In this document: one piece after another, positions 8,625 to 53,472 of the stretch
How the letters are laid out: each line of letters begins with the position of its first letter
Position numbering within the stretch: the stretch's first letter is position 1
Assembly: GCA_035549695.1 (NCBI GenBank)
Contig: DASZQK010000003.1
Span: 4,833-68,832, forward strand
Direction of reading: 5' to 3'
Length of the DNA stretch: 64,000 bases
Origin: Caulobacterales bacterium
Lineage (GTDB): Bacteria > Pseudomonadota > Alphaproteobacteria > Caulobacterales > Aquidulcibacteraceae
Position numbers and translations under genes: made by a program
The notes under the pieces: model-generated
What the model was told of the DNA's origin: nothing
The model's database searches: none
What the model saw: only the letters and a program-made list of their open reading frames with translations

Positions 8625-8806
8625 GCCGAAATCTTGTTGCAAGCACAGGTTGCGGGTATCCGACGCGCAAAGAAGACTTAGCTTAGTCTTGGCAGGAGCT
8701 CTTCGAGCGTAACGAAGATTTCGCGAAGCGAAAGCTTGCGCTGTCGCAGATTGTTAATGTCCGGATGCGAACTAGGCCCGAGCATGACGGGGACCGGTGG
8801 CGATCC

Positions 8807-9864: not shown

Positions 9865-9957
9865 GCGATTCCGCTTCCATTCAGGGTCGGCGCGCGCGTT
9901 TCCCCGTAGCAACGCGCTCGGGGGCGTCCTATCCTGCCGCGAGCACGGGGGAAGGGC

Positions 9958-11451
9958 ATGCCGGATCATCCACAGTCGCCGCAACCGCAGCCAAGCGGCC
10001 AGGACCGCCAGGTCAAGTTGGTGTCGATCGTCGCGATCGACGTCGTCGGCTTCTCTTCGATGTCGGAAAAGGATCAGCGCAACACCGCCAAGAAGATCGA
10101 GGCGCTGCGTGGACGCATCGACGCCACGGCGCGTCATCACGGCGGGCGCCTGTTCAATACGGCGGGAGACGGCTTCATGCTGGAGTTCGGTTCCGCCGGC
10201 GCCGCGCTCGAAGCCATCCAGGACCTGCTGGACAAGCGCGCCAAGGGCGAGCCGAAAATTCGCGTGGGCGCCCATGTTGGCGATGTGATCGTCACCGTGA
10301 ACAACGATTTGCTCGGCCACGGCGTGAACATCGCCGCGCGGCTGCAGGCTTTGGCCTCGCCCGGCTCCGCCTTGGTGTCATCCGAGTTTCGTTCGATGGC
10401 GCGCACCAGTCCGTCCGCCGCTTTCCAGGCGCGCGGCCGCCAGCCGCTCGAAAACATCGAGCAGAAGGTGCAGACGTTCGAAATCCTGTCCCAGAAGCAG
10501 CGCTTCCAGCGCTGGATCAAGCGCGTCACCTACGGCGCGACGGGACTTGCGGCGGTGACGGCGCTCGCCTTCGTCAGCCCTTACGTGCTGCATATCGTGC
10601 AAGACCAGTTGGCGCTGCGCACGCAAGCCGATGCGAGCACGGCCGCGCCGGCGCCCGCGCCGCAGCAGGAGGAGTTTCGCCAAGCCTCGTCCAGCGCGCC
10701 CGCAACCACTGAAGCCGCGCCGGCGGCGCTGACGGCGGGCCAAAGCTTCCGCGATTGCGCCGATTGCCCGGAAATGGTGGTGGCCCCAGGCGGGCTCTTC
10801 ACCATGGGTTCGCCGGCGACGGAATTCGGCCGCGCCGAGGACGAGGGGCCGACGCGCGAGGTTTCGATCGCGCCTTTCGCCGTCGGCAAGTACGAAGTCA
10901 CGTTCGCCGAGTGGGATGCGTGCGTCACCGATGGCGGCTGCAACGGGTTTTCTCCGTCGGATCGGGGTTGGGGGCGCGCGAATCGTCCGGTCGTGGGCGT
11001 GTCTTGGGCCGACGCGCAGGCGTTCGTGCGCTGGCTCAATCTGAAATCGGGCTCGACCCAGTATCGCCTGCTCACCGAAGCGGAGTGGGAGTACGCCGCG
11101 CGCGCCGGCTCGCAAACGGCGTATGCGTTCGGCGATCAACTCACGCCCCAGCAAGCGACCTTCCATGTCGCGCGGACGACGGAGGAAGGGGCGCACCAAG
11201 CCAATGCGTTCGGACTCTACGATCTGCACGGCAACGCCGCCGAATGGGTCGAGGATTGCTACGCGGCGAGCTACAATCTCGCGCCCGTCGACGGCACGGC
11301 GGTCGAGGCCGATCGCTGCCGCGCCCGCGTCTATCGAGGCGGCGGGTATTCCGACGCCTCGGCCAAATTGCGCGCCGCCGCACGCCGGAGCGCCGCGCCC
11401 GATTTGCGCCAGCCGAGCGTCGGCTTCCGCGTCGCCAGGACAATGAATTAA
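9958..11451 (+). CDS. Class III nucleotide cyclase - TM - FGE/SUMF1 domain fusion
   Basis: N-term IDVVGFS, TAGDGF, IRVGAHVGDV, DLLGHGVNIAARLQ; TM near residue 190-215; Ala/Pro linker; C-term FRDCADCPEMVV, RLLTEAEWEYAARAG, NAFGLYDLHGNAAEWVEDC, GFRVAR. Confidence 0.9.
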   Translation: MPDHPQSPQPQPSGQDRQVKLVSIVAIDVVGFSSMSEKDQRNTAKKIEALRGRIDATARHHGGRLFNTAGDGFMLEFGSAGAALEAIQDLLDKRAKGEPKIRVGAHVGDVIVTVNNDLLGHGVNIAARLQALASPGSALVSSEFRSMARTSPSAAFQARGRQPLENIEQKVQTFEILSQKQRFQRWIKRVTYGATGLAAVTALAFVSPYVLHIVQDQLALRTQADASTAAPAPAPQQEEFRQASSSAPATTEAAPAALTAGQSFRDCADCPEMVVAPGGLFTMGSPATEFGRAEDEGPTREVSIAPFAVGKYEVTFAEWDACVTDGGCNGFSPSDRGWGRANRPVVGVSWADAQAFVRWLNLKSGSTQYRLLTEAEWEYAARAGSQTAYAFGDQLTPQQATFHVARTTEEGAHQANAFGLYDLHGNAAEWVEDCYAASYNLAPVDGTAVEADRCRARVYRGGGYSDASAKLRAAARRSAAPDLRQPSVGFRVARTMN

Positions 11452-12369: not shown

Positions 12370-12453
12370 GAGCCGGACAGCAGTCGGGCCGGATCCGAGG
12401 GATCCGGCCCTTGCTGCGGTGGCGCCTGGGCGGGGGGAGTAGGTCGGCGCCAT
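12370..12453 (-). ncRNA. Candidate EcfG/sigmaT-dependent small RNA (two hairpins, C-rich loop); ends approximate
   Basis: Starts just downstream of a perfect GGAAC-N16-CGTT promoter; stem UGGCGCC/GGCGCCA (12452-12446 with 12426-12420) encloses loop GACCUACUCCCCCCGCCCA; second perfect 11-bp stem GGGCCGGATCC/GGATCCGGCCC at 12386..12410. Confidence 0.55.
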
Positions 12454-12459
12454 CCAAAG

Positions 12460-12484
12460 AACGCGCACCCCTTGGGGGGGTTCC
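12460..12484 (-). promoter_or_regulatory. EcfG/sigmaT-type general stress promoter
   Basis: Minus strand GGAAC (12484-12480)-N16-CGTT (12463-12460). Confidence 0.7.
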
Positions 12485-39067: not shown

Positions 39068-40066
39068 ATGGCCGCTAAATGTTTTCAGGAGCGCGTTGTG
39101 CAACTGGGTCTGGGCGGCGCCGCGGTCGGCAATCTCTATCGGGCCGTCACCGAGCCCGACGCCGAGGCCGCAATCCTCGGCGCCCTCGAAGGCGGGTTCG
39201 AGCTCATCGACACCGCGCCGTATTACGGTCACGGCCTTTCCGAGCTGCGTATCGGCGCCGCGCTTCGGAAATGGCAAGGACCCGCGCCACTCATCTCCAG
39301 CAAGGTCGGGCGCGTGCTCGATCCGGTCGCTCCGGGTGAGGAGGGCGATTTTGGCTTCGTCAGCCCGGCGCCCTTTCGCCCGCGCTTCGATTATTCGCGA
39401 TCGGGCGTTCGCCGCAGCTTGGAGGAGAGTCTGGAGCGGCTCGGCGTCGCCAAGCTCGCCGTCGCGCTGGTTCACGATGTCGGCCAACTCACCCACGGCC
39501 AAGCGCACGCCCAAGTGCTTCGCCAAGTGTTGGACGAAGCCTTGCCCGAGCTTTGGCGTGCGCAAGGCGAGGGTCTGGTCGGCGCCATAGGCATTGGCGT
39601 CAACGAGTGCGATGTTTGCCACGAGATCCTTGCGCGCGCGCCGCTCGACTGCATCTTGCTCGCCGGCCGCTACACGCTGCTGGAGCAGCCCGCGCTGACA
39701 AGCGGGCTGCTGGATGTCTGCGCCGGACGCGGCGTTTCGGTCATGGCCGCCGGAGTATTCAATTCAGGTTTGCTGGCGACGGCGCCGACTTCAGCCAGCA
39801 CCTATAACTACGCGCGAGTTCCGCAGCCGATGCTTGATCGCGCGCGGGCGATCTGGTCGCTTTGCCAGGAGCATGGCGTGGCGCCGCAAGGGGCGGCGCT
39901 GCGTTTCGCGGCGGCTCATCCTGCGGTATCGCACACGATTGTCGGCGCGCGCAGCCGCGCGGAAGTCGACGAACTCATCGCTTGGCGCGCGGCTGAAATA
40001 CCGGGCGCGCTATGGACCGCGCTGAAGGCGCGCGGTTTCCTCTCGGCCGAAGCGCCCACGCCTTAG
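39068..40066 (+). CDS. Aldo/keto reductase, L-fucose (D-threo-aldose) 1-dehydrogenase-like
   Basis: LGLGGAAVGNLY, DTAPYYGHGLSE, SSKVGRVL, FDYS, VHD, LLAGRYTLLEQ, GVFNSG. Confidence 0.85.
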   Translation: MAAKCFQERVVQLGLGGAAVGNLYRAVTEPDAEAAILGALEGGFELIDTAPYYGHGLSELRIGAALRKWQGPAPLISSKVGRVLDPVAPGEEGDFGFVSPAPFRPRFDYSRSGVRRSLEESLERLGVAKLAVALVHDVGQLTHGQAHAQVLRQVLDEALPELWRAQGEGLVGAIGIGVNECDVCHEILARAPLDCILLAGRYTLLEQPALTSGLLDVCAGRGVSVMAAGVFNSGLLATAPTSASTYNYARVPQPMLDRARAIWSLCQEHGVAPQGAALRFAAAHPAVSHTIVGARSRAEVDELIAWRAAEIPGALWTALKARGFLSAEAPTP

Positions 40067-40830
40067 CCGTTCTTGAGCCGCGCCGTGATCGCCTTCGCCG
40101 CTTCGCGCGTGAGCTCGGTGCATTGCTCGATCGGCGGTCCCGGCGGATGGCGCGCGACAAAGGGCATGGTGATGCTGGCGATTGCACCCAGATTCTCGCC
40201 GTCATAGACGGCCGCGCCGATGTCGCGGATGCCGTCGGAGATGCGGCTCGGCTCCAGCAGGTAGCCGCGTTCGGCGGCCGCCTTGGATTCCGCAACGAAC
40301 GCGTCGATCGCCTTGGCGTCAGGCGCTTTGGCCTTCCAAAGTCGCAAGAGTTCGTTCTGGCGAGCTTCCGATTGGGCGCCGAAAATTACCCGCGCCGAGG
40401 CGGAACGCAAAATCGGCACGCGATGCCCCACCCGCACTGAAAAACTCACCGCCGCCGGACTCTCGACCCGCGCGATAACGACGACATGATCGTCATCGCC
40501 GATCATCACGCCCAGGTGGCAGGATTGCTGGCTTCGTTCCGCCAGCGTGTGCATCACCGGCAATGCGGCGTCGTGCAAGTTGCGCATCGGCGGATTGCGC
40601 ATGCCGAGTTCGAACAGCCGGCTGGTGATCTGGTAGCGGTCGTCGTATTCCCCCCGCGCGATGTAGCCGCGCGCCTCAAGCACGACGAGCATGCGGTAGA
40701 TTTCGGTTTTCGAGCGCCCGAGTTTCTGAGCGATTTCCGGCATCGCCAAGGGCGAGGGCTGGCCAGCGAGCAATTCCAGGATTTCCAGCCCCTTATCGAG
40801 GGCCGGCGCTTTGTAGACCGCTTTCGCCAA
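40063..40830 (-). CDS. IclR family transcriptional regulator
   Basis: YKAPALDKGLEILELLA...IYRMLVVLEARGY HTH; SASARV effector domain; probable TTG start at 40830. Confidence 0.92.
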   Translation of the reverse strand: MAKAVYKAPALDKGLEILELLAGQPSPLAMPEIAQKLGRSKTEIYRMLVVLEARGYIARGEYDDRYQITSRLFELGMRNPPMRNLHDAALPVMHTLAERSQQSCHLGVMIGDDDHVVVIARVESPAAVSFSVRVGHRVPILRSASARVIFGAQSEARQNELLRLWKAKAPDAKAIDAFVAESKAAAERGYLLEPSRISDGIRDIGAAVYDGENLGAIASITMPFVARHPPGPPIEQCTELTREAAKAITARLKNG

Positions 40831-41023
40831 GTTTCGCTCCCGCCGCGATTTTTGTTCCCTGATGCAGGGTTGCAGGCTTTCGCGCAAGCGTTTGCATCGT
40901 GCGCGCCTGGCGAACGAGTATTAGCGCGGGCGGACGCGGGCTGGGGGCCGGGCGCGGCGCCGAGTTCTCACGGTCAGAGCGGCGGCGTGCGCTGGGCGGC
41001 GATTTCGGCGAGAGGCGGCGCCC

Positions 41024-41314
41024 TCATCTTGGCTCGCGCCCAAATTGCCTGCGCAATTCCGTCTTGGCGCGTTGCAGCGTCTTCAATTGGCCCGCTGGCA
41101 GATTGTGGCCGGCGCGATTGATATAAAAGGTGAGCATCGACATCGCCGAGCGATAGGGCTCGGCCTTGCGACGGCGGCTCGTTTCCGCCGACCGTTTGAG
41201 CGAGCGCGCAATCTTCTTGGGATCGCTCCAGGTGAAGACGCCGCCATCCAGATCGAGCGCGTTGCTTTTTGTGGTGACGTCCTGGGACCACTTTTTCGTT
41301 TTGGCCGCGGGCAT
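41024..41314 (-). CDS. DUF3175-family small basic protein
   Basis: KKWSQDVTTKSNALDL..GVF...PKKIARSLKRSAE.SRRRK..PYRSAMSMLTFYINRAG. Confidence 0.85.
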   Translation of the reverse strand: MPAAKTKKWSQDVTTKSNALDLDGGVFTWSDPKKIARSLKRSAETSRRRKAEPYRSAMSMLTFYINRAGHNLPAGQLKTLQRAKTELRRQFGREPR

Positions 41315-41341
41315 GTTCTCGTCCTCGGTTCCCTGGACGGC

Positions 41342-41366
41342 AACGGGTCCCGGGGTGCGAGGTTCC
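41342..41366 (-). promoter_or_regulatory. EcfG/sigmaT-type promoter of DUF3175 gene
   Basis: Minus strand GGAAC (41366-41362)-N16-CGTT (41345-41342), 27 nt before the ATG. Confidence 0.8.
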
Positions 41367-41466
41367 GACGCGCTCGCGCAAAAAAATCGGGCGAAGGGGC
41401 GATAGGGCGAGAACCGGAACTGCTCTCGCGTCTTTATTCTAGGAACAACAGGGAGGCGGCGGGGCG

Positions 41467-42576
41467 ATGCAGGTTCGACTCTCATTTGATAGCTCGGCTT
41501 TCGCGGAGGAATGGCCGCGCGTGACCGATCGCTGCGCGGCGGCATTCCATGTTTTTCAGGCGCGCGACTACCTTGAAGAGTGGAGCGGCACGATGGGCCG
41601 CGCGCGCGGCGCCAAGCTTTGCTTCGTTCGCGTCGCCGACAATGAGGAACCGCTCATGCTGATTCCGCTCGCGCTGGAGCGCCGGCGCGGCGTGCGCATC
41701 GTCTGCTTTCCCGACGGCGGCGTCGCCGACTATAACGCGCCCGTGCTGTTCCCGCGCGCCGCGGCGCTCCGGTTGGCCGACATGAGCGCCATCTGGCGGC
41801 GCATCAGCGGCGCCTTGCCGCCGTTCGACGCGGCGCTGCTCGAGAAATTGCCGGGCGCCGTCGACGGCGCGCCCAATCCCTTCCGTTTACTGGCGCAGGA
41901 GGCCTACGAGGAGAGCGCCCACGCGGTCGAACTCAGCGGTGACTGGCCGTCATTCGTGGCCACACGGCTGCATCGGCCCAAGGACAGCCGGCGTAAGCGC
42001 AGGCGCTTGGCCGAACTTGGGTCGCTGCGTTTTCTCGTCGCCGCGAATGCGGACGATCGTGAGCGCCTGCTCGAGGCGCTGATCCGACAGAAGACGCGCC
42101 GCTACCTGCAGACACGGGGCATCGACGGGTTCAATCGCCCGGGCTATCGCACCTACTTTCACGCCCTGACGCGCCGCTTCGGCGAGACCGGCGAAGTGCA
42201 TATTTCCGGCCTCGAACTCAATGGCGAGCCGATCGCCGTTCATTGGGGGCTGGTCACGGCGGATCGCTTCTATTGCCTCATGCTCGCCCATGCCGAGGGC
42301 GTGTGGGCGCAATATTCTCCAGGCCGCATTCTGGTCGAGGATCTCATCGCGTGGTGTTATGCGCAGGGCCTGAGCGTGTTTGATCTCGGCGTTGGCGACG
42401 CGCCCTGGAAGCAGCGGCTGGGCGAAACCCGCACGCCGTTGTGGCGTGCGCACCTGGCGCACAGCTTTGCTGGTAAGGCCTATATCGAGGCCGCGAGGCT
42501 GAAGCGTGCGCTTCGCGCCGCGTCGCGGCAGATCGATCGCGAACCGCCCAATCTAGAAGGCCGCAGGGTCGCGTAG
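41467..42576 (+). CDS. GNAT acetyltransferase, CelD/BcsL (HfsK-like) family
   Basis: VFQ..DYL..W, ADYNAP, KDSRRKRRRLAELG, YSPGRIL, FDLGVGDAPWK. Confidence 0.85.
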   Translation: MQVRLSFDSSAFAEEWPRVTDRCAAAFHVFQARDYLEEWSGTMGRARGAKLCFVRVADNEEPLMLIPLALERRRGVRIVCFPDGGVADYNAPVLFPRAAALRLADMSAIWRRISGALPPFDAALLEKLPGAVDGAPNPFRLLAQEAYEESAHAVELSGDWPSFVATRLHRPKDSRRKRRRLAELGSLRFLVAANADDRERLLEALIRQKTRRYLQTRGIDGFNRPGYRTYFHALTRRFGETGEVHISGLELNGEPIAVHWGLVTADRFYCLMLAHAEGVWAQYSPGRILVEDLIAWCYAQGLSVFDLGVGDAPWKQRLGETRTPLWRAHLAHSFAGKAYIEAARLKRALRAASRQIDREPPNLEGRRVA

Positions 42577-43272
42577 GAACACGGCGACGGTGCGCAACAT
42601 GATCATCAGATCGAGCCAGATGGACCAGTGGTTCACGTAGGCGAGATCGAGTGCGATCCGGCGCGCCACCTTTTCCTCTGTATCCGTTACCCCGCGCGCT
42701 CCCGAAACCTGCGCCAAGCCGGTGATCCCGGGGCGCGCGAAGCGGCGGCGCGTGTACGCGAGGTCGAAGCGGCGAAACTCGTGTTCATGCAGTATGGCGT
42801 GCGGCCGCGGGCCGACCAGCGACATCTCGCCTCGCAGCACATTGATGAGCTGCGGCAGCTCATCAAGGCTGAATTTGCGCAGCGTGCGGCCAATTTGGGT
42901 CACGCGCGCATCACCCTGCACCGCCTGCGCGACATTGCGCCCATCCTCAAGCGTCGACATGGTTCGGAACTTGTAGATTCGGAACACGCGGCCGCGGAAT
43001 CCGGCGCGGCGCTGGCGGAAGAAGACCGGCCCCGGCGAGTCGAGCTTGATCTGAATGGCGATGCATATGAACAGCGGCGTCAGCAGCGCGAGCGCCAGAG
43101 CCGACGCGACAATGTCAAATGCGCGTTTCAGCGCGCCGCCGACTGGCTCGATCGCCAGGCGATACTCCATGCCGGCGGGCGGATAAATCCCGTGCAACGG
43201 CGCGACATCGCTCGCCGTGGGTGAAGCGGTTGCAAATCCGAGCTGCGGAAGCTGAGGCGAGGAGGCGCTCAT
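42553..43272 (-). CDS. Priming sugar-phosphate transferase (WcaJ/HfsE-like catalytic domain only)
   Basis: KRAFDI, DSPGPVFFRQRRAG, KFRTM, SLDELPQLINVLRGEMSLVGPRPH, PGITGLAQV, DLAYVNHWSIWLD. Confidence 0.93.
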   Translation of the reverse strand: MSASSPQLPQLGFATASPTASDVAPLHGIYPPAGMEYRLAIEPVGGALKRAFDIVASALALALLTPLFICIAIQIKLDSPGPVFFRQRRAGFRGRVFRIYKFRTMSTLEDGRNVAQAVQGDARVTQIGRTLRKFSLDELPQLINVLRGEMSLVGPRPHAILHEHEFRRFDLAYTRRRFARPGITGLAQVSGARGVTDTEEKVARRIALDLAYVNHWSIWLDLMIMLRTVAVFLRDPAAF

Positions 43273-43314
43273 AAAAAAGTCCAAGCACAAAAATTCGCCC
43301 CGCTCCGCGCCACC

Positions 43315-43352
43315 AACGTGCGCCGCAGGAACTAGTTCCGAACTGACTTGTT
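43315..43352. promoter_or_regulatory. Overlapping divergent EcfG/sigmaT-type promoters sharing a palindrome
   Basis: Palindrome GGAACTAGTTCC 43328..43339; minus GGAAC-N16-CGTT (43339..43315), plus GGAAC-N16-TGTT (43328..43352). Confidence 0.72.
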
Positions 43353-43397
43353 ATGGGACAGGCGGCGGGAACGGTTGGGGCTTGGGGACGCGAACCC

Positions 43398-44771
43398 ATG
43401 TTGGACGCCTATTCGCCGTCGCTGCCGGGGAGCGTGCTCTATCCCATCGCCGCGGTTCTGGCCATCGCGCTGTGGTTCGTGTTGCGGCGGGCGGAAGGAC
43501 GCGCCGCACGCTTCGTCATCGCCGCCATGTGGCTGCGTTATGTCATGCCGGTTTTTCATGACGTGACGTTCAAGCCCGTCGTGGGCGACTTTTCGATGAT
43601 GGCGCTGGTGACGACCGGCCTCTTTGGCCTTGGCTGTCTGGTTGTTCCGCCGCGCCGCTGGATGTTGAAGGCGCTGGCGCCGATCTACATCCTTCTCGGC
43701 GTAACGATTTTAAGCGCCGTCATCAACGGCGCCTATTCGGGCCTCGTCAACACGCTCATCAAATGGGGCTTCTTTCTCGTTCTTCTGCTCGGCGTCTATG
43801 AGGCGGTTCGGCGGCACGGACACGAGCGCACCGCGGGCTTCCTGCTGTGGGCGATCGCGCCGGCGCTCGTGTTCCAAGCCGCGTCGGTCGTCACCGGCGT
43901 CGCCAAGCAGAATGAGGGCGAAGGAGCGTTGAGCTATATTGGCGGATACAATCACGAGTCCGCGTTTTCGATCGTCATGGTGACCGGCGTTTGCGTTGCG
44001 GCGTTCGCCACGCGACTCAATGGAATTGCGCGCAATGTGCTAGTGGCGGCCTTTCTGGTCGGCCTCTATCTCGCCAACTACCGAACCTCCATCCTCGCCG
44101 TGGCGCCGATCGCGATCGTCTACTTCACCGTGCAGGCGGCCGGCGCATTTCGCTCGCGCGAGCGCATGATCGTCAGCGGCGTCATGCTCGGCTTTTCCGT
44201 TCTCGGCGTCGCCGCGATCGGCTTCTTGATGCGGGACCGCTTTGCGGACTTTGCGACGGTGCTGCACGGAACGCCGATCTTCCAGTCGCCCGAAGATTTC
44301 ACGGCTTCGCAACGAACGTTGTTCTCGTCGCGTCTCTATTTGTGGAGCCAGTATCTCGACGCGTTCTCCAGAGGCGGGCTTGAGCACCAGTTCTTCGGCT
44401 TCGGTCCCGACGCCTGGCGCAATGAATTCGCCATCTACGCTCACAACACGTTCATTTCGACGCTCTACGAAACCGGCGCCCTAGGCGCGGGGGCGCTGCT
44501 CTATCTTTGGGGCGCCATGGCGTTCGCGAGCCTTCGCGCCGAGGACGCGCTGGTGCGGTTCAAGTTGCTGGCTTCGCACCTTACTTTCGTGCTCGTCAAC
44601 ATGGCGACGATGGGACAATGGCTGCTTGAAGGGCTGATGTTCTATGCGTTCGTCTGCGGCGTCACGCTGGCGCAAACGCGGGCCGCGATCGTCCTCGAAC
44701 AACCGCAGGCGCCGCCGCACCGCGCGGCGGCGCGCCGCTTCGCCATGGCGCGCGCGCGCCACCGGATCTGA
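43398..44771 (+). CDS. O-antigen ligase/Wzy-type polysaccharide polymerase
   Basis: About 11-12 TM segments; ANYRTSIL, SSRLYLW, GFG, YAHNTFISTLYETG. Confidence 0.8.
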   Translation: MLDAYSPSLPGSVLYPIAAVLAIALWFVLRRAEGRAARFVIAAMWLRYVMPVFHDVTFKPVVGDFSMMALVTTGLFGLGCLVVPPRRWMLKALAPIYILLGVTILSAVINGAYSGLVNTLIKWGFFLVLLLGVYEAVRRHGHERTAGFLLWAIAPALVFQAASVVTGVAKQNEGEGALSYIGGYNHESAFSIVMVTGVCVAAFATRLNGIARNVLVAAFLVGLYLANYRTSILAVAPIAIVYFTVQAAGAFRSRERMIVSGVMLGFSVLGVAAIGFLMRDRFADFATVLHGTPIFQSPEDFTASQRTLFSSRLYLWSQYLDAFSRGGLEHQFFGFGPDAWRNEFAIYAHNTFISTLYETGALGAGALLYLWGAMAFASLRAEDALVRFKLLASHLTFVLVNMATMGQWLLEGLMFYAFVCGVTLAQTRAAIVLEQPQAPPHRAAARRFAMARARHRI

Positions 44772-44776
44772 TCGCC

Positions 44777-45982
44777 ATGGCCGATTATTTTTACACCAAG
44801 CACGGCGAGGGGCGCCGGCGCGGCGCCGGCTGGCGCGATTCGCGCCCGTTCGCGCTGCTGGCCAATGATTTGCGCGACGCGCGCCCTGGCGACCGCTTCG
44901 CCATTGGCTTTCCGAACTTCGGCGAAAACCCCGTGGATTGGACGGGCGCCAATCTCGTCGTGCAGCGGTCCGGCGCGCCGGGACGGCCCATACGCATCGA
45001 GGCAGGTTATGGCGTGGGGCAAGCGGAGCTTCGCGCGGCCCGCGGCGCCGGCGGCGCTTTCTTTCTCGCGCCGAACTCGATGCGTGCGCGCGTCGGCGCG
45101 CCGCTCCGGATCAACGGCGCGTCCTACGTGGAAGTGTCCGGGCTTCGCGTCGACGGCGCATCCGCGGACGGCGTGATCAAGTTCGGGCCCGGCGCCTCCA
45201 ACAATGTCGCGCTGCGCGGTTTCAGCGTGCGCAATGCCGGGCGCGCGATCGAGACTGATCGAGGCGCGCAGATACGCAATCTGCTCGTGGAAGATTGCGA
45301 CGCCTTCGCGCTCAGCCGCGGCTTCGCGCGCTTCTGGCAATTGGACCAATCGGTGCTTCGCAATCTCACGCTGGACGCCAATCGAGTCGATCTGGGCGGC
45401 GGCAACGTCACGCAGCTCATTGCGGTGGCGGCGGGAAGCGAGGTTCGCTTCGAAAATATCCAGTTCCGCAACGCGGTGAACACGCGCGATTACGTCCAGG
45501 GCGATGGGCTCGTCTGTGAGCGCGGCACGCGGCGCTTCGTTGTGCGCAATTGCCACGCCGAGGGTATGGGCGATGGCGGCTTTGATTTGAAGACGACGGA
45601 TGTCACGGTTGAGGATTGCACGGCGGCTGCGTGTAAGTACGGCCTGCGCATCTGGTCGATGGGGCGCAACGTCGTGCGCCGCTGCGTGATTCGCGATCCG
45701 CGGCGCTACGGTGCGCAAAGCGGCGCTTGTGTCGAGGCGCACGGACGCGCCGAGTTCACCGATTGCCAGTTCGAAGCTGGCGCTGGCGCCGCGATCTTCC
45801 GCTTGTCAACGGGCGGGGAGGGCCCCCCGGCGCTGCGCGTGACAGGCGGCGCGATCCGCCTCGAGAACGGAGCGGAGCTCGTGAGCGGCGATCGCGAGGG
45901 CGGCGTCGAGCTGGTGAATGTGGCGGTTAACGGGCATGCGCGCAGCGGACATTTCAGCGCCGGCCAAAGGCTCGGCGGATGA
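44777..45982 (+). CDS. Right-handed parallel beta-helix protein (pectin-lyase-like)
   Basis: Repeating beta-strand units (NVALRGFSV, NLLVEDC, EVRFENI, FVVRNC, VTVEDC), GDGGFDLK motif; no obvious signal peptide. Confidence 0.7.
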   Translation: MADYFYTKHGEGRRRGAGWRDSRPFALLANDLRDARPGDRFAIGFPNFGENPVDWTGANLVVQRSGAPGRPIRIEAGYGVGQAELRAARGAGGAFFLAPNSMRARVGAPLRINGASYVEVSGLRVDGASADGVIKFGPGASNNVALRGFSVRNAGRAIETDRGAQIRNLLVEDCDAFALSRGFARFWQLDQSVLRNLTLDANRVDLGGGNVTQLIAVAAGSEVRFENIQFRNAVNTRDYVQGDGLVCERGTRRFVVRNCHAEGMGDGGFDLKTTDVTVEDCTAAACKYGLRIWSMGRNVVRRCVIRDPRRYGAQSGACVEAHGRAEFTDCQFEAGAGAAIFRLSTGGEGPPALRVTGGAIRLENGAELVSGDREGGVELVNVAVNGHARSGHFSAGQRLGG

Positions 45983-47304
45983 AGATCCTAATCGCCAACT
46001 ACCGCTATTTCGTTTCAAGCGGGCCCGAAAGATATCTCTTCAATCTCAAGGCCCGCCTCGAGGCGGCCGGCCACACCGTCGCGCCGTTCTCCGTACGCTA
46101 TGCGCGCAACGCGGCGACGCCTTACGATCGCTATTTCGTGTCGCCGCTGGCTGGCGAGGACGAGGTGTATTTCGATCAGCACAAATCCTCGCTGCGCGCG
46201 CTGGGCAAGACCATGGCGCGCCTGTTCTATTCGCACGAGGTCGAACGCGCCGTCATGCGCATGGCCGATGAGGTGAAGCCGGACGTCGCCTACGTGCTCT
46301 ACTATCTGCGCAAGCTTTCTCCATCCCTGCTCGTGGGTCTGAAGAAGCGGCGCGTGCCGATCGTCGTACGTCTGTCGGACTATGGCATGTTCTGTCCGGA
46401 GCACCATTGCCTGCGGCATGGAGCGCCTTGCACGGCCTGTCTGACCGACGCAAGCGCAAGCGTGCGCTACGCCTGCGTCAAGGGCAGTCGTGCGATTTCC
46501 GCCGTCGACGCCGCAGCGACGGCCTTCCATCGCTGGCGGCGCTATTTCGATCTGATCGATGCGTTTGTCGTAACCAACACGTTCATGCAGAGCCTGATGG
46601 TCGAGGCCGGCGTTGCGCCGGAGCGGCTTTTTTGCGCGCCGACGTTCACTGACACCGAGGCATTTCATCCGCCGGCGGAAGATCGGCGCGACTACCTCCT
46701 ATGTCTGGGCCGGCTCGATCCGCCCAAGGGCGTCGAGGTGTTGATCGACGCAATGGCCCTGCTCAAGCGGCGCCTGGGTGCAAGCACGCCGCGACTCAAA
46801 ATCGTCGGCGCAGGACATCAGGCCGACTATGTCGCGCGTTTGCATGCACTCGCCGCGGAACGAGCCGTGACCGATGTCGTCGAGTTCTGCGGTGAAGCGT
46901 CGCCGAACGCCGCCGCGGATCTGTTCAGGGGCGCGCTGGCGACCATCATTCCCGCTGTTTGGTTCGAGAACCTGCCCAATTCGTTGATCGAGAGCATGGC
47001 GTGCGGCACGCCTGTCATCGCCTCGCGCATTGGCTCGCTTGCGGTTTCAGTCCGCGATGACGCGGACGGCCTGCTCGCGGACCCGGGAAGCGCGGCTGAT
47101 TTCGCGGCCAAAATCGAACGGCTCGTCGGCGACGCCGGCCTGCGCGCGCGACTCGGCGCGGAAGCGCGCCGCTCGGCGCTGACCCGGTTCTCAGCCAGCG
47201 CCCATGTCTCCCGGCTGCTCAATCTTTTCGCCGCCGTCGGCGCGCGGCCTGCGGCCCGCGCATCGCTCAACATAACCACACGTTCAATCGGAGAGGCTTC
47301 ATGA
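45979..47304 (+). CDS. GT4 glycosyltransferase
   Basis: GRLDPPKGV, ENLPNSLIESMACGTPVIASRIG. Confidence 0.92.
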   Translation: MKILIANYRYFVSSGPERYLFNLKARLEAAGHTVAPFSVRYARNAATPYDRYFVSPLAGEDEVYFDQHKSSLRALGKTMARLFYSHEVERAVMRMADEVKPDVAYVLYYLRKLSPSLLVGLKKRRVPIVVRLSDYGMFCPEHHCLRHGAPCTACLTDASASVRYACVKGSRAISAVDAAATAFHRWRRYFDLIDAFVVTNTFMQSLMVEAGVAPERLFCAPTFTDTEAFHPPAEDRRDYLLCLGRLDPPKGVEVLIDAMALLKRRLGASTPRLKIVGAGHQADYVARLHALAAERAVTDVVEFCGEASPNAAADLFRGALATIIPAVWFENLPNSLIESMACGTPVIASRIGSLAVSVRDDADGLLADPGSAADFAAKIERLVGDAGLRARLGAEARRSALTRFSASAHVSRLLNLFAAVGARPAARASLNITTRSIGEAS

Positions 47305-48278
47305 AAATCATGGTGACGGGCGCCAACGGCTTCGTTGGGATGGAGGCGGTGCGCCAGTTGTGGCGCGATCACGAGGTGCTGGCGGTCGATAGCCTGCGTT
47401 ACGGGCCGTGGCGGTTCTCCGAAGAGGAGATGCAAGGGTTCGACGTCGACGCCAGCGATCTGCGCGACCGCGCCGCCGTCGAGCGCCTGATGCGGACCTT
47501 CGAGCCGGACGCCATCATCCACCTGGCGGCGATCCATTTCATTCCCGAATGCGAGCGTCTGCCCGATGAAGCGGTGTCGATCAATATTCAGGCGACCAAC
47601 AATCTGCTCAATTCCGCGCCGCGGCGAAGCCGGTTCGTGTTCGCTTCGACCGCCGCCGTGTATGCGCCCAGCGACGTCGCGCATCGCGAAAGCGACATTC
47701 TCGGGCCGATGGACGTCTATGGCCACAGCAAGCTCGCCGCTGAGAATTTCGCGGAATATTTCATGTCGACGCGAGATTTCGAGGCCGTCATCGTGCGCCT
47801 GTTCAACGTGGTGGGGCGCGGCGAAACCAATCCGCACGTGCTCCCGGAAATCATCGCGCAGCTTCGGCGCGGCGAGCGGCGCCTTTCGCTGGGCAATATC
47901 CATCCAAAGCGTGACTACATCCATGTGAGCGACGCCGCGCGCGGGTTCATCGCGGCCGCCGTTCAGCCCTATCCGGCCGAACTCGGTTCCGTTCCGGTGG
48001 TCAATCTCGGCTCCGGCGTTTCTTATTCGGTGCGTGAGATGATCCATCTGCTCGAGGATGTGGTTGGCGCGCGCATCGCCGTGGAGATTGACCCGGCCAA
48101 GGTGCGCAAGGTCGACCGCCCGCAGCTTTTGGCCGACAACACGCGCATGCGCACGCTGTTCGATTGGGCGCCAGCGTACGATTTGCGCGCGGCTCTGGCG
48201 GAAACTTGGGCCGAGGCGCCGCGCAAGCGTCCCGCCGGCGTCGCCGAGACGATCGACGCTGCGCATCCGCAAGCTTAG
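47301..48278 (+). CDS. NAD-dependent nucleotide-sugar epimerase/dehydratase
   Basis: VTGANGFVG, HLAAIH, STAAVY, YGHSK, RLFNVVG, KRDYIHV. Confidence 0.92.
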   Translation: MKIMVTGANGFVGMEAVRQLWRDHEVLAVDSLRYGPWRFSEEEMQGFDVDASDLRDRAAVERLMRTFEPDAIIHLAAIHFIPECERLPDEAVSINIQATNNLLNSAPRRSRFVFASTAAVYAPSDVAHRESDILGPMDVYGHSKLAAENFAEYFMSTRDFEAVIVRLFNVVGRGETNPHVLPEIIAQLRRGERRLSLGNIHPKRDYIHVSDAARGFIAAAVQPYPAELGSVPVVNLGSGVSYSVREMIHLLEDVVGARIAVEIDPAKVRKVDRPQLLADNTRMRTLFDWAPAYDLRAALAETWAEAPRKRPAGVAETIDAAHPQA

Positions 48279-48328
48279 CCGGAACCATCGTGTTCGGTTC
48301 GCATTGTCGCGGCAAAGGAGCAGCGGCA

Positions 48329-49438
48329 ATGCGGATCGCGCAATTGGGAAGTCGCGGCATTCCGGGGCACATGGGCGGCGTCGAACGCGTGATCGAGGCG
48401 GTCGCGCCGCGTTTGGTCGAGCGCGGTCACGATGTCACTGTCTATTGCGCCGACTGGGCCCCCACGCGAGTGCGCGATTATCACGGCGTGACTCTGAAAC
48501 ACGTTCCGAGCCTCCGCCATCAGTATTTCGATACAATCGGCCGCTCCGCGCTGGCGACGTTGCGCGAGATCGTCGGCGCGTCGGACGTCGTGCACTATCA
48601 CGGCAGCGGGTCTGCGCCGCTTGCGCCGCTGGCGCGCCTTTTCGGCAAAAAGGTGGTCGTGACGGTCCACGGTCTTGATTGGCAGCGGCGAAAGTGGAAC
48701 TGGGCGGCGCAGCAGTTTTTGCAAGCCGGCGAATGGGCGGCGGTGAAAGCGCCGCATCGCACGATTGTCGTCGGTGAAGGTCTGCGCCGCGAATTGCGCT
48801 CGCGCTACGGCGCCGATCCGCAGGTCATTCCCAACGGCGCCGAGGCGCGCCCGAGGCGTGCGCCGGACAAGATCCGCGCGCACGGTCTCCGCGGCGACGA
48901 TTATTTTCTCTACCTCGCGCGGATCGTGCCGGAGAAGCAGCCGCATCTCCTGATCGAGGCTTTCCGCGCGATGGACGATCGGCGCGGGCTGAAACTCGTC
49001 GTCGCGGGCGCGGATTGGCATTCGAAGGACTACGCCGAGCGCGTGCGCAAGCTCGCCGCAGAAACAGACGATGTGCTGTTCCTCGGCGCGGTGGATGAAC
49101 CGACGCTCGAGGAGCTCTATTCGAACTGCCGGGCCTATGTGTTGCCTTCGGAAGTGGAGGGCATGTCGCTGTCCTTGCTCGACGGGCTGGCCTATGGGGC
49201 GTGCAATATTTGCAGCGACATCCCCGCCAACATCGAGGTCGTCGCCGACACGGGCCTGTTGTTCCGCTGCGGCGACGTCGGCGATCTTCGCGACAAGCTC
49301 GATCGCGCGGCGCGGGACGAAGCCGAGGTGCAGGCGAGGCGTCATGCCGCGCGACGGCGCATGAGCGAAGATCTCAGCTGGGACAGGATCGCCGACGCCT
49401 GGGATTCGCTTTACCGCGAATTGGCGCGCAAAAGCTAG
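48329..49438 (+). CDS. GT4 glycosyltransferase
   Basis: MRIAQLGSRGIPGHMGGVE, VHGLDWQRRKW, ARIVPEK, SEVEGMSLSLLDGLAYG. Confidence 0.92.
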   Translation: MRIAQLGSRGIPGHMGGVERVIEAVAPRLVERGHDVTVYCADWAPTRVRDYHGVTLKHVPSLRHQYFDTIGRSALATLREIVGASDVVHYHGSGSAPLAPLARLFGKKVVVTVHGLDWQRRKWNWAAQQFLQAGEWAAVKAPHRTIVVGEGLRRELRSRYGADPQVIPNGAEARPRRAPDKIRAHGLRGDDYFLYLARIVPEKQPHLLIEAFRAMDDRRGLKLVVAGADWHSKDYAERVRKLAAETDDVLFLGAVDEPTLEELYSNCRAYVLPSEVEGMSLSLLDGLAYGACNICSDIPANIEVVADTGLLFRCGDVGDLRDKLDRAARDEAEVQARRHAARRRMSEDLSWDRIADAWDSLYRELARKS

Positions 49439-49457
49439 GCCGCGCGCGGGCGCGCCT

Positions 49458-50378
49458 TCATGTGAGGGGGAAGCCGTAGCGGGCGATCATGTTTCGGATT
49501 TGCACATCGTTGGCGCCGTCGGGTGCGGCGTTGACGCGATGCAGCGAGAACGTCTGACTCGAAGGCCACGTGACCATGTCGCGGCGCGGGCCGACCCGGC
49601 GGACGAGAGCGCCCGCGCGCCGCACCATCCAGTAGAGCCAGATGTCGTCCGCCGTGGGACAAAGCCGGGTGAATGAGGTCACATCGCGCACATCGTCGTG
49701 CAGTGTTCCCGGCGGGAACAACACGCCGCCAATGCCAGTGGGAAAAAGCAGGGGCGAACTTTCACGCGCGCGCACGTCATGACGCCAGGCGCGATAGGGC
49801 AGGGGCAAGCCGGCGGCGTCCAGACCAATGCCATGCGCACGGTGGCATAGCGCCTCGCGCCGCTGCGGATCGTAGGCGGCGCACGCTTCTTCAAGCCAGG
49901 TCTCGGGGTAGTAGACGTCATCGTCCGCCGTGGCGACGAAAGCATCCGGAAATGCGGCCAAGGTCGGGATGATTTTCTTGAAGGAGCGCAGATCCTCGGT
50001 GAACTCAATCGTGAGCCCGTAACGCGTCAATGCACGCACGTCTTCCGGCAATTCGGGCGCGTCGCCGTGCGCGATCCAGAGGATGACATCATCGGCGGCG
50101 ACGGTTTGCGACAACAGGCATTTGAGCGTCGCGGCCAGCGTTGGAAAGCGCGGCGGAAACGAGGTCAGCGAAACCACGAGGCGTCCGGGCAGCGCGTGCC
50201 GCCGCGGTTGCGGACGCCGATCGGGCCAGGTCCAGTCGATTAGACGCTGCAGGCAGGCGCCCTTCAGCGCACGGGGGATGCTGCGCGGGCTGCGACGCAC
50301 GATCCCGGCCGCGCGCCGCGCCCGCGTCAACCAGTCCGAACCGACCGAGGCGCCAAGCGCCACGGTGCGATCATGCAT
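49458..50378 (-). CDS. GT-A fold glycosyltransferase (GT2-like)
   Basis: LVVSLTSFPPR, DLRSFKKIIP, TADDDVYY DxD, TGIGGVLFPPG, TADDIW. Confidence 0.85.
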   Translation of the reverse strand: MHDRTVALGASVGSDWLTRARRAAGIVRRSPRSIPRALKGACLQRLIDWTWPDRRPQPRRHALPGRLVVSLTSFPPRFPTLAATLKCLLSQTVAADDVILWIAHGDAPELPEDVRALTRYGLTIEFTEDLRSFKKIIPTLAAFPDAFVATADDDVYYPETWLEEACAAYDPQRREALCHRAHGIGLDAAGLPLPYRAWRHDVRARESSPLLFPTGIGGVLFPPGTLHDDVRDVTSFTRLCPTADDIWLYWMVRRAGALVRRVGPRRDMVTWPSSQTFSLHRVNAAPDGANDVQIRNMIARYGFPLT

Positions 50379-52530
50379 TGTAGTATCCCTTGCCGGCGTC
50401 GACGTAGTAGAGCGAATCCGAATGCGAATACCGGCCCGGAGCTCTGGGGTCGATGCAATTGAGCGCGACGCCGGTGACGCTCGCTCCGGTCGCTTCGATT
50501 TGGTGGATGGCGGAAGCCAAGGCGCGCGTCCGTGTCTTGCGCCAGCGTCCAAGCAAGATGACCATGTCGGAAAGAGCCACAAGCGCGCGGGTCTCGGCCA
50601 CGGCCAGCACCGGCGCGCAATCCAGCACGACAAGATCGTATTCCGCGGCGAGTTCATCCATCAGCTTCTTCATCGCCGGCGAACCGAACACGTCATGCAA
50701 GGGCGTATCGGTCGCGGAGAGGGGAAGCACGTGCGTGCCGGCGCCTTCGTCGCGCCCGATTACGGATCGCCAGTTTTGCTGGCCGGACAGCACTTCGAGC
50801 AGCCCGGCGCGGGGAGCGATGTCGAGAATGTCATTGAGCGAGCGGCGGCGCACATCGCAATCGATCAGAATCACCTTTTCGCCGGACATGGCCGCGACGC
50901 GGGCGAGGCAGAGCGCGGCCGTGGTCTTGCCCTCGCCCGGAAGCGCCGAGGTCACCGCGACGATCTTGTGGCCTTGCCGTCCTTGCGAATAGACGATCGA
51001 GGCGCGCAGCACGCGGAACGCCTCGGCGAAGGCGGAGAGAGGATTGGCGAGCAAGTAGCCGCTCGGATGGCGCTCGCGCAGAGGTAGGTTGCGCAGCACC
51101 TTGCGCGGCATCACGGGAATGGAAGCGACCGCCGGAAGGCCGACCCCCCGCTCGACATCATCGGCGCTGCCGAGCGTATCGTCGAATTGATGCACGAGCA
51201 TCCCGGCGATCAGGCCGACGACCAGGCCGAGTATCGCCGCGATGGCGAGCGAGAGAGAGAGTTTGGGCGAGGCTGGCGCGGCCGGCGGCGTCGCCAGAGA
51301 CAGAAGCCGCGTCGACGGCGTTAGCACGCCTTGGTCGGATATCTCGTGCGCGCGCTGGAGAAAGCTCTCGTAAACGGCGCGCGCGCCCGCGGCTTCGCGA
51401 TCGAGCTCGTTGAGCTGCACTTGGTCCGCGCCGTTGTTGAGCAGCCGGCCCTGGACGGCCGCCAGATGGCCCTGCAGCGAGGCAAGGCGCGCCCGCGCCA
51501 CTTCCTCTTCGCTCTCGAGGCTTGAGGAGATGCGGGCGATCTCGCTGCCGATCTGCCGTTCGATGTCGGCGCGCTCGGCGCGCACGTTTTGCAGCGCCGG
51601 ATGGGCGTCGCTGTAGCGCGATTCCATGTCCGCCTGACGCCGCGCGACGTCGGCCTCGCGGGCGCGAAGATCGCGGATGGTCTCTGAGCTGATCACGCCG
51701 GCGATCATATCGGGCGAACTGCCCGACGAGATCATGGAGCGGACTTGCCGGTAGCGCGCCTGCTTTTCCGCAAGATCGGTCTGCGCGTTGGTGACGGCGA
51801 TCTGCGCGTCGCGAATCTGCTGTTCGGTCAGTGTCGCGCCTTGCGCCGTCAGCAGGCCGTGCTGGGCCCGATAGGCTTCGGCGGCGGCTTCTTTGGCGTT
51901 CAATTCGACGCGCAATTCCTGCAGGCGCTGCGAAAGCCACGCGCTCGCCTGCTGCGAGGCGCGCTGTCCTTGTTCGATCTGTTCGAGTTGATAGAGGCTG
52001 ATCAGCGTATTGGCCATCAGCGCGGCCTTGGCGGCGCTGCGCGCCGTCACCTTGACGTCGATGACGTGGGTCATGCCGTTGCGGTGGGCGTCGATGGCGC
52101 CATGGACGCGTTCGATCACGGCTGGCGTCAGCGGCGCATTGGCGCCGCGTACGGCCGCCTTGTTCCACTCCGGATCGTTGTTGAGATGGAGAGCCTGCGC
52201 CAAGCGCTCGGCCATATGTCGCGAATTAAAGACTTCCGCCTGCGAGTCCACGAAAGTCGAATCCGGCGACACGTCGCTGAGCTGCTGTTGAGGGTCGACG
52301 ACGCGATCCTGGCGCGGATCGATCATCACCTGCGCTGTCGCTTCGTATTTTGGCGGCTGCATCAGCAAATAGCCCGCCACGCAGACGCCCACCGCGGCTG
52401 CGACCGAAAGAATCACGCTGGCGCGCCTTTGCAGCACCTCGACAATGCCGGAGAGGCTGAGCTCGTCGTTCTGCATCGCGCCGGAGGGTTGGCGCGCGAT
52501 GGGCAACGGATCATAAGTGGCGATATTCAT
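50371..52530 (-). CDS. wzc: Wzc/GumC polysaccharide co-polymerase with BY-kinase domain
   Basis: Two TM helices around a coiled-coil periplasmic domain; FAEAFRVLR, Walker A TSALPGEGKTT, LIDCDVRR, VLDCAPV, Tyr-rich tail (YSHSDSLYYVDAGKGYY). Confidence 0.93.
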   Translation of the reverse strand: MNIATYDPLPIARQPSGAMQNDELSLSGIVEVLQRRASVILSVAAAVGVCVAGYLLMQPPKYEATAQVMIDPRQDRVVDPQQQLSDVSPDSTFVDSQAEVFNSRHMAERLAQALHLNNDPEWNKAAVRGANAPLTPAVIERVHGAIDAHRNGMTHVIDVKVTARSAAKAALMANTLISLYQLEQIEQGQRASQQASAWLSQRLQELRVELNAKEAAAEAYRAQHGLLTAQGATLTEQQIRDAQIAVTNAQTDLAEKQARYRQVRSMISSGSSPDMIAGVISSETIRDLRAREADVARRQADMESRYSDAHPALQNVRAERADIERQIGSEIARISSSLESEEEVARARLASLQGHLAAVQGRLLNNGADQVQLNELDREAAGARAVYESFLQRAHEISDQGVLTPSTRLLSLATPPAAPASPKLSLSLAIAAILGLVVGLIAGMLVHQFDDTLGSADDVERGVGLPAVASIPVMPRKVLRNLPLRERHPSGYLLANPLSAFAEAFRVLRASIVYSQGRQGHKIVAVTSALPGEGKTTAALCLARVAAMSGEKVILIDCDVRRRSLNDILDIAPRAGLLEVLSGQQNWRSVIGRDEGAGTHVLPLSATDTPLHDVFGSPAMKKLMDELAAEYDLVVLDCAPVLAVAETRALVALSDMVILLGRWRKTRTRALASAIHQIEATGASVTGVALNCIDPRAPGRYSHSDSLYYVDAGKGYYNA

Positions 52531-52619
52531 GCCGGGACTCCGCGAATGGCGTTCGGCAAGCGCGGGCACAGCGACGCGGGCGCGCGGGCGAGAAAATCGA
52601 ATGACATGTCGTCCCCTGA

Positions 52620-53393
52620 CTATGCTCGCGAATATCCGGCCGTTCTTGCCGTGAGAAACGAAACAGACGTTCCCTCAAGCCGCGCCGCGGTTAAGACGCC
52701 GGTCGCATAGGCGCCGGTGTCGATCGCAATGCGCGAGCCTTCTATTGTTGGCGCGCGCACAGGCGTGTGCCCGTGCACGACACAATGGCTCGTGGGTTTT
52801 GTATTCTGCAAAAAGCGATCGCGGATCCAAAAGAGATCGCTGTCGGTCTGGTCCTTGAGCGGCTTGGCGGGGTCTATGCCCGCGTGGACGAACAGATAGT
52901 CGCCGGCCTCCACATAGCGCTCGAGCTCGGCCAGGAACCGCGCATGCGCCTTCGGCATGCGGTCGCGCAGCGCTTCGCCGGCGTCGGCGATCGCCGCCGG
53001 ATTGTTGGCGCCGGGGGGCGGTGGACGCACGCCGTAGGAGGCAAGCGTGTTGGCGCCGCCATGGGCGAGCCAGGTCCGCGCGCGCACCGGATTGCGGCAG
53101 AAATCGAGCATCAATTGCTCATGGTTGCCTTTCAGGAACCGGCGCTCGAAGCCGAAGGGCCTGCCGGCGAGCAGAAGGTCGAGGACGTCTTTGCTATCGG
53201 GGCCGCGGTCGATGTAGTCGCCGGCGAACACGACCATCGGCGTATCGCTCGCTTCGCCTTCGGCCAGCTGCTCAAGGTCGCGCAGCAGCTTTTCCAGAAG
53301 ATCGGCGCGTCCATGCACGTCGCCGACGGCGAAACCCAAACGTCCGGCGGGAAATGCCGGGAGACGCTTGGCTCGTGACTTTGAAATCCGCAT
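52620..53393 (-). CDS. PPP-family (PrpA-like) protein phosphatase
   Basis: VGDVHG, GDYIDRG, LKGNHE, FVHAG, VHGHT, IDTG. Confidence 0.92.
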   Translation of the reverse strand: MRISKSRAKRLPAFPAGRLGFAVGDVHGRADLLEKLLRDLEQLAEGEASDTPMVVFAGDYIDRGPDSKDVLDLLLAGRPFGFERRFLKGNHEQLMLDFCRNPVRARTWLAHGGANTLASYGVRPPPPGANNPAAIADAGEALRDRMPKAHARFLAELERYVEAGDYLFVHAGIDPAKPLKDQTDSDLFWIRDRFLQNTKPTSHCVVHGHTPVRAPTIEGSRIAIDTGAYATGVLTAARLEGTSVSFLTARTAGYSRA

Positions 53394-53447
53394 GCCGCCG
53401 GTCCCGGAACATGCGCGCCACCGAGTGAGCGCGCACCCGCTCGGCGA

Positions 53448-53472
53448 AACGTTCGCAGGCGCCGCATGTTCC
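53448..53472 (-). promoter_or_regulatory. EcfG/sigmaT-type promoter of phosphatase-wzc-GT2 unit
   Basis: Minus strand GGAAC (53472-53468)-N16-CGTT (53451-53448). Confidence 0.78.

Follow-up and report, generated by a model that had tools for sequence, protein, structure and literature searches.

Is a polysaccharide gene cluster from an uncultured Caulobacterales bacterium switched on directly by EcfG, the sigma factor of the general stress response? The locus in question spans ~12 kb (41.4-53.5 kb) of a 64-kb stretch of DNA, which we call the window, and its genes include those for a priming transferase, a Wzy-like membrane protein, glycosyltransferases (GTs), and a Wzc-like protein. The signaling behind the general stress response of alphaproteobacteria is well understood, but what the majority of its output genes do is not known, and only a few indirect entries in transcriptomes have so far linked it to surface polysaccharides. 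This locus would be a clean and directly wired example. The genome is a metagenome-assembled genome (MAG) of a Caulobacterales bacterium, with 3.25 Mb in 67 contigs (named C1-C67) and 65.9% GC, and the host belongs to an uncultured and probably soil-dwelling genus.

We think it likely that EcfG directly controls the locus, as an accessory surface-polysaccharide cluster of the Wzy/Wzc type. That EcfG promoters front almost every transcription unit of the cluster is a well-supported computational prediction. Dependence on EcfG, induction by stress, an exopolysaccharide (EPS) or capsule as the product, and any protective role are what we infer.

EcfG-type promoters in the window

A preliminary description of this DNA had listed three perfect copies of GGAAC-N16-CGTT at or next to the locus, and we found them at exactly those positions on the minus strand (Table 1). 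In the entire window, there are four perfect copies, all on the minus strand, all intergenic, and none in coding DNA, which agrees with the description of the listed copies as intergenic and correctly oriented. In 100 shuffles of the window that preserved dinucleotide frequencies, the average was 0.43 copies (the preliminary estimate was ~0.4), and none of the shuffles reached 4. All four perfect sites look genuine.

The window also contains the copy with one mismatch that had been reported before the wzy operon (GGAAC-N16-TGTT, on the plus strand). Overall, sites with up to one mismatch occur in the window at the level expected by chance (17, including the perfect ones, vs. 14.7 expected), so the wzy-operon site counts only through its conservation in relatives. 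The three perfect sites at or next to the locus and the wzy-operon site all point to a gene start within ~100 nt. Between the priming transferase and wzy, the 12-bp palindrome GGAACTAGTTCC (43328-43339) serves as the -35 element for two divergent promoters of the extracytoplasmic function (ECF) type. Beyond GGAAC and CGTT, we found nothing useful for extending the consensus, except that a C frequently precedes GGAAC.

We also scanned 40-54 kb for the sigma-70 consensus of E. coli and found no sites (2.1 were expected). Because the consensus was the one from E. coli, this is weak evidence, and it does not suffice for a claim that EcfG promoters are the only type of promoter in the locus.

The motif across the genome

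Across the genome, we counted a match as promoter-like if it was oriented towards a gene and lay within 200 nt of its start. For controls, we used four composition-matched motifs as well as other spacings. At the N16 spacing, there are 45 matches, of which 24 are intergenic and 15 are promoter-like. For N14, N15, N17, and N18, there are 16, 19, 19, and 18 matches; 1, 5, 12, and 2 of these are intergenic, and 0, 1, 6, and 1 are promoter-like. The four control motifs had 0-3 promoter-like matches at every spacing. A genome-wide scan had been proposed as a check in the preliminary description, and in ours the motif shows a strong excess at N16-N17 in intergenic positions with the right orientation. 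Of the ~21 promoter-like perfect sites in the genome, 3 are inside 12 kb (Poisson p ~7e-5).

The preliminary description took the motif to be the consensus of EcfG (also known as sigmaT or RpoE2), and the core regulators bear this out. We found one nepR-ecfG-phyR set in the genome, on C48. phyR (8624-9421) has an N16 motif 74 nt upstream, and nepR (~9636-9845) and ecfG (9843-10391), which are divergent from phyR, have an N17 motif upstream. Other matches precede a PrkA-like kinase, a 945-aa repeat-rich protein that resembles a sensor, and several small membrane or secreted proteins. (From inspection of their sequences, without a family scan, we read some of the small proteins as DUF1328-, BON-, and DUF4142-like.) These results support the view that the motif is the consensus of EcfG (group ECF15), in a genome whose PhyR-NepR-EcfG core bears the same motif on its own promoters.

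Conservation in related genomes

Homologs of Wzy are present in 20 of 36 genomes from the same genus and in 0 of 24 genomes from other families of the order. We compared the locus in detail with its counterparts in the two closest species, G013 and G025. In G013 (74% identity for Wzy and 84% for Wzc), the gene order from the IclR regulator to AcrB is the same, without DUF3175. Perfect N16 sites precede the priming transferase (L025 5684-5708) and the phosphatase in G013, and the intergenic DNA around the promoters has diverged. On the plus strand, G013 has kept GGAACTAGTTCC...TTGTTATGGGAC, with the spacing now N17. The palindrome in G013 is accompanied by conserved -10 elements on both sides (ACGT.. 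on one side and TGTTATGGGAC on the other).

In G025 (48% identity for Wzy and 55% for Wzc), a perfect GGAACGCTGTGCGCGAGCGAGCGTT precedes the phosphatase, despite a different upstream neighbor. In an alignment of the phosphatase promoter with those of G013 and G025, CGGAAC and CGTT are constant while the spacer and the flanks have diverged. In the region that separates the transferase from wzy, G025 also has a palindrome, GGAACGCGTTCC, and the -10 elements that accompany it are GGTT (N16, on the transferase side) and CATT (N17). All three species share the form GGAAC-NN-GTTCC. The palindrome is absent at 17 or more wzy loci that are more distant.

Another 11 species from the genus have a related locus, in which Wzc is ~48% identical and Wzy is 36-40% identical (where scored). 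In these loci, an invariant GGAAC...CGTT lies ~450 nt from wzc and points away from it, and the rest of the region barely aligns. For example, in G030, an EcfG-type promoter precedes genes for a 65-aa membrane protein and a GT2 glycosyltransferase, inside a polysaccharide locus. Thus, EcfG promoters appear to be a recurrent and selected feature of this genus's family of loci, with turnover in their number and position.

The same 11 species share a box, AATTGTCCAAAATTTAAC, that follows the EcfG -10 element at a distance of ~20-35 nt, in the 5' leader of the operon for the small membrane protein and GT2 (in G030, at L027 17520-17600). The box is absent from the genome studied here. We did not find a consensus RNA fold for the leader in the alignment of the 11 species, nor an Rfam match for the leader from G030. 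The box looks like an operator.

Genes of the locus

The gene content given in the preliminary description largely held up (Table 1): the families of the DUF3175 protein, the priming transferase (Bac_transf), the Wzy_C protein, the beta-helix protein, the two GT4 enzymes and the epimerase between them, the Wzc-like protein, and the phosphatase (Metallophos) are all as described. The exception is the 306-aa protein that had been called a GT2, which has no match in Pfam or NCBIfam. It has only a marginal match to KfiA (E=0.059), which has the GT-A fold, and an ADDD motif is present. It may represent an unclassified family of glycosyltransferases. Its ATG overlaps the stop codon of wzc (ATGCATGA), which suggests translational coupling.

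Table 1. Genes and EcfG-type motifs at the locus, with flanking features (positions in the window).
Feature	Position	Strand	Evidence or comment
Fourth perfect motif	12460-12484	-	Upstream of ~85-nt non-coding element; not listed in the preliminary description
IclR-family regulator, flanking	40063-40887	-	HTH_IclR and IclR_C; syntenic in G013
DUF3175 protein	41083-41314	-	PF11373, 120 bits
EcfG-type promoter of DUF3175	41342-41366	-	Perfect match; 27 nt from -10 to ATG 41314
Acetyltransf_6 (FemAB/CelD-like GNAT)	41467-42576	+	PF13480; not mentioned in the preliminary description
Short polyprenyl-phosphate hexose-1-phosphate (priming) transferase	42553-43272	-	Bac_transf, 222 bits; WcaJ/EPS_sugtrans C-terminal domain
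EcfG-type promoter of priming transferase, GGAACTAGTTCCTGCGGCGCACGTT	43315-43339	-	Perfect match; 42 nt from -10 to ATG 43272
EcfG-like promoter of the wzy/beta-helix/GT4/epimerase/GT4 operon, GGAAC-N16-TGTT	43328-43352	+	One mismatch; 45 nt before wzy start 43398
Wzy_C-domain membrane protein, polymerase or ligase-like	43398-44771	+	PF04932, 41 bits; family also covers O-antigen ligases
Right-handed beta-helix protein	44777-45982	+	PF13229, PF12708
GT4 glycosyltransferase	45979-47304	+	Glycos_transf_1
NAD-dependent sugar epimerase/dehydratase, GalE-like	47301-48278	+	PF01370; TIGR01179 below cut-off
GT4 glycosyltransferase	48275-49438	+	Glycos_transf_1 and Glyco_transf_4
306-aa protein, possibly a GT-A-fold transferase (orf306)	49458-50378	-	No Pfam or NCBIfam match; 'GT2' in the preliminary description
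Wzc-like polysaccharide co-polymerase/BY-kinase	50371-52569	-	Wzz, GNVR, AAA_31; TIGR01005, 336 bits
PPP-family (lambda-phosphatase-like) metallophosphatase, putative Wzc partner	52620-53393	-	Pfam Metallophos; NCBIfam PrpA/ApaH-like below cut-offs
EcfG-type promoter of the phosphatase-wzc-orf306 unit, GGAACATGCGGCGCCTGCGAACGTT	53448-53472	-	Perfect match; 54 nt before ATG 53393
Unrelated AcrB-HlyD-TetR unit	from 53550	-	

We used conservation to choose some of the start codons. An ATG at 43353 is a candidate start for wzy, and it abuts the -10 element, but its counterpart in G013 is out of frame and is followed by TAG after ten codons. We therefore set the start of wzy at the conserved ATGTTGGAC. 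The start of the phosphatase was also picked by its conservation with G013.

The Wzc-like protein is a putative bacterial tyrosine kinase (BY-kinase) and ends in a cluster of tyrosines (...YSHSDSLYYVDAGKGYYNA), with five Tyr in the last 20 positions. The phosphatase next to it matches the structure of lambda phosphatase (PDB 1G5B, E=1.9e-9) and the N-terminal part of the Arabidopsis "Rhizobiales-like phosphatase 2" (RLPH; 5VJV, E=2e-8). Its assignment to Metallophos and to the phosphoprotein phosphatase (PPP) family rules out a low-molecular-weight protein tyrosine phosphatase (LMW-PTP) of the Wzb type as well as a polymerase and histidinol phosphatase (PHP) enzyme. The pairing of the phosphatase with Wzc is kept in G013 and G025, and this type of enzyme may represent an additional kind of partner phosphatase for BY-kinases.

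Upstream of the acetyltransferase gene (41400-41466), there is a degenerate EcfG-like site, aGAAC-N17-CTTT, with two mismatches. The corresponding region of G013 (L025 3760-3838) has cGAAC-N16-CGTT, with one mismatch. This may be a fifth promoter that is weak or decaying.

The GC content of the locus (65.2%) is the same as that of its flanks, and nothing points to its recent horizontal acquisition. A scan of the window with Rfam found no family.

Export functions and other polysaccharide loci

The preliminary description proposed a "dedicated" capsule or EPS, which is doubtful because the locus lacks both a Wzx flippase and a Wza exporter. Across the genome, the Wza family (Poly_export) is found only at C46:36015 and C67:8624. 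For Wzx, the family scanned was Polysacc_synt_3 (PF13440), not PF01943 or PF14667, and its matches are confined to C50:41991 and C67:2176. Proteins for flipping and export must therefore come from elsewhere in the genome.

Further priming transferases are encoded at C67:710 and C46:47968, which brings the number of polysaccharide loci in the genome to at least three. Those at C46 (Wza-Wzc) and C67 are full loci and have no intergenic EcfG motif. Because they lack these motifs, it is plausible that the locus under study makes a separately regulated polymer.

Alternative explanations

We considered four alternatives, and all of them are less likely than direct control by EcfG or are compatible with it. 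One is that the motif matches arose by chance and that the locus is run from ordinary housekeeping promoters. The motif has just nine specified bases, and there are about 16-19 background matches per spacing across the genome. However, nearly all of those background matches are in coding DNA, the controls and off-spacings gave 0-3 promoter-like matches (vs. 15), three matches fall within 12 kb, and the boxes alone are kept across species. We find it hardly credible that chance explains this. Alternatively, these could be real ECF-type promoters that are read by, or shared with, another sigma factor that responds to a narrower envelope signal. Many ECF groups have a -35 element that contains AAC, and the genome encodes other ECF sigma factors. 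The closest paralog of EcfG (C1:87243-87755, 38% identity) has ...GGATGA...CCGTT in its upstream region. We rejected this paralog as the reader of the locus's sites: its apparent -35 is GGATGA rather than GGAAC, and the gene that follows it encodes a 241-aa anti-sigma-like protein, which is not NepR-sized, so that we judged the paralog not to be of the EcfG type (without a family scan). Also, exact matches to GGAAC-N16/17-CGTT precede phyR, nepR-ecfG, and classic genes of the stress regulon, and only the one nepR-ecfG-phyR set was found. Control by another sigma factor seems quite unlikely.

The palindrome raises another alternative: its primary role might be as an operator for a dimeric transcription factor, such as the flanking IclR-family regulator, with its likeness to an ECF -35 element being secondary. 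Three species have retained the 12-bp form, and one of them is G025, in which neither -10 element fits the consensus. However, GGTT and CATT are both tabulated as putative variants of the EcfG -10 element in Sphingomonas melonis (PMC6599016), and in G013 the -10 elements are conserved along with the palindrome. An operator would also leave the promoters of the phosphatase and DUF3175, which are not palindromic, unexplained, and the palindrome is absent from the more distant wzy loci. We consider this very unlikely. Finally, control by EcfG might be real but the product might not be a separate capsule or EPS. Instead, the locus might remodel an existing glycan under stress, giving an O-antigen variant, a variant linked to lipopolysaccharide, or a variant repeat unit, with export left to the machinery of another locus. 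The absence of Wzx and Wza from the locus would fit, as would the inclusion of O-antigen ligases in PF04932 and the short priming transferase, which has just the C-terminal domain. On the other hand, the locus has a full Wzc that bears a tyrosine cluster and is paired with a phosphatase, an arrangement typical of the assembly of high-molecular-weight EPS or capsule. Remodeling is somewhat unlikely, and it is compatible with EcfG control.

Several points weigh against EcfG control of a polysaccharide cluster at every unit. All that we have of the organism is a MAG, and the wiring is a prediction from sequence. The genome-wide counts of promoter-like sites depend on crude gene calls (based on GC content at third codon positions). 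At the wzy-operon site, the -10 element (TGTT) departs from the consensus, and the class to which this site belongs is at the chance level, and the acetyltransferase gene lacks a good EcfG site. Most species of the genus have a single promoter of this kind in the related locus, and it is at a different operon, so the full wiring is confined to three species. Also, given the breadth of PF04932 and the lack of Wzx and Wza, the nature of the product is uncertain.

A proposed mechanism

If EcfG controls the locus, then, following the established partner switch of PhyR, NepR, and EcfG, stress kinases would phosphorylate PhyR. Phosphorylated PhyR would titrate NepR, and the freed EcfG would take RNA polymerase to the promoters of the locus. 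The three main units (phosphatase-wzc-orf306, the priming transferase, and the wzy operon) would each be transcribed from a sigma-EcfG promoter. The promoter of the wzy operon would be the weaker one, divergent from that of the priming transferase and sharing its palindromic -35 element. In this way, initiation, assembly of the repeat unit, polymerization, and the control of chain length and export would be switched on together. Flipping and export across the outer membrane would be performed by Wzx (from C50 or C67) and Wza (from C46 or C67).

A bolder version of this model is rather doubtful. The locus would be a pure EcfG module, with all of its units transcribed by EcfG only and two of them from one palindromic -35 element. 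Under stress, it would borrow housekeeping Wzx and Wza proteins for a different repeat unit, to switch the surface polymer instead of adding one, and Wzc would be under the control of a PPP enzyme similar to lambda phosphatase or RLPH. If so, the PPP enzyme would add a third class, so far undescribed, to the partner phosphatases of BY-kinases, besides the Wzb-type and PHP enzymes.

With wiring that is conserved across the genus, the locus offers a testable route that leads from the activation of PhyR to one defined polymer of the envelope and that may be relevant to survival of desiccation or osmotic stress. It also offers natural tests of whether ECF promoters can be bidirectional and whether a BY-kinase can have a PPP-type partner phosphatase.

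Comparison to known systems

The promoters themselves do not differ from those of canonical EcfG/SigT/RpoE2 (ECF15) regulons. The genome shares with those regulons the GGAAC-N16/17-CGTT motif, the autoregulation of phyR and nepR-ecfG, the PrkA-like kinase, small membrane or secreted proteins, and a GsrN-like small RNA (sRNA; predicted, see below). What is unusual is to have three or four such promoters in one biosynthetic cluster, where two of them share a single palindromic -35 element and face in opposite directions.

The loci for group 1 capsules and colanic acid are Wzx/Wzy-dependent, include Wza, Wzb (an LMW-PTP), and Wzc, and are controlled by the Rcs phosphorelay. Our locus resembles them in having a priming phosphoglycosyl transferase, a Wzy-like protein, GT4 enzymes, an epimerase for nucleotide sugars, and a Wzc that ends in a Tyr cluster. 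It differs in that Wza and Wzx are not in the locus, the phosphatase is a PPP enzyme instead of Wzb, and an ECF sigma factor, rather than Rcs, is predicted to be in control. The alginate operon of Pseudomonas aeruginosa is transcribed by AlgU (sigma-22), an RpoE-like ECF sigma factor that is freed from its anti-sigma factor under stress by regulated proteolysis. Here too, a sigma factor that is released by stress would directly switch on the synthesis of an exopolysaccharide. However, AlgU belongs to another ECF group and does not involve the PhyR partner switch, and alginate synthesis is synthase-dependent, not Wzy-dependent, with a single operon promoter.

Our literature searches on PhyR or EcfG and polysaccharides turned up only entries from S. 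melonis and Caulobacter. In S. melonis Fr1, the operon #3505-3509, which encodes a glycosyltransferase and an "exopolysaccharide biosynthesis protein," is among the top EcfG-dependent genes, and a fusion of its promoter to lacZ was EcfG-dependent, but the authors viewed it as a putative indirect target, lacking a good motif (Gottschlich et al. 2019, PMC6599016). The operon shows that glycosyltransferase and EPS genes can be tied to EcfG in an alphaproteobacterium. Here, by contrast, every main unit has a perfect or near-perfect and conserved motif, although the control of our locus is a prediction from sequence, and the two sets of genes may not be orthologous. In Caulobacter crescentus, which belongs to the same order, the SigT regulon during carbon starvation includes CC_0164, a regulator of capsular chain length, which changed ~2-fold and has no motif listed (PMC3073932). 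This links a Wzc/Wzz-type gene to a sigma factor of the same family, but it is a single gene with a modest change and no SigT motif, while we found motifs across an entire locus. In Sinorhizobium meliloti, deleting all of the ECF sigma factors did not alter the production of succinoglycan (PMC6180224).

In short, control of EPS synthesis by ECF sigma factors and glycosyltransferase genes that depend on EcfG were already known, and our results do not change the concept. As far as our searches show, a cluster that is wired directly at every unit has not been described.

DUF3175 and a putative small RNA

The preliminary description placed the DUF3175 gene in the polysaccharide locus, and this did not hold up. 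It is found in just 2 of 41 genomes from the genus and is missing from the syntenic locus of G013. In the other genome, G007, it is at another site and has its own GGAAC-N17-CGTT, 12 nt before the ATG. Judging from this distribution, DUF3175 is an independent accessory stress gene, a separate predicted target of EcfG that neighbors the locus by happenstance. We did not find any papers about DUF3175.

The remaining perfect motif in the window is followed by a non-coding element of ~85 nt (12370-12484 with the motif, minus strand) that is 83-94% identical in 31 of the 41 genomes from the genus. In the alignment, GGAAC and CGTT are invariant and the spacer is free to vary. The element had no match in Rfam. 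Its invariant hairpin, GGCGCC-(GACCUACUCCCCCCGCCCA)-GGCGCC, has a C-rich loop and is followed by a long GC stem-loop, and the element looks like a GsrN-like stress sRNA.

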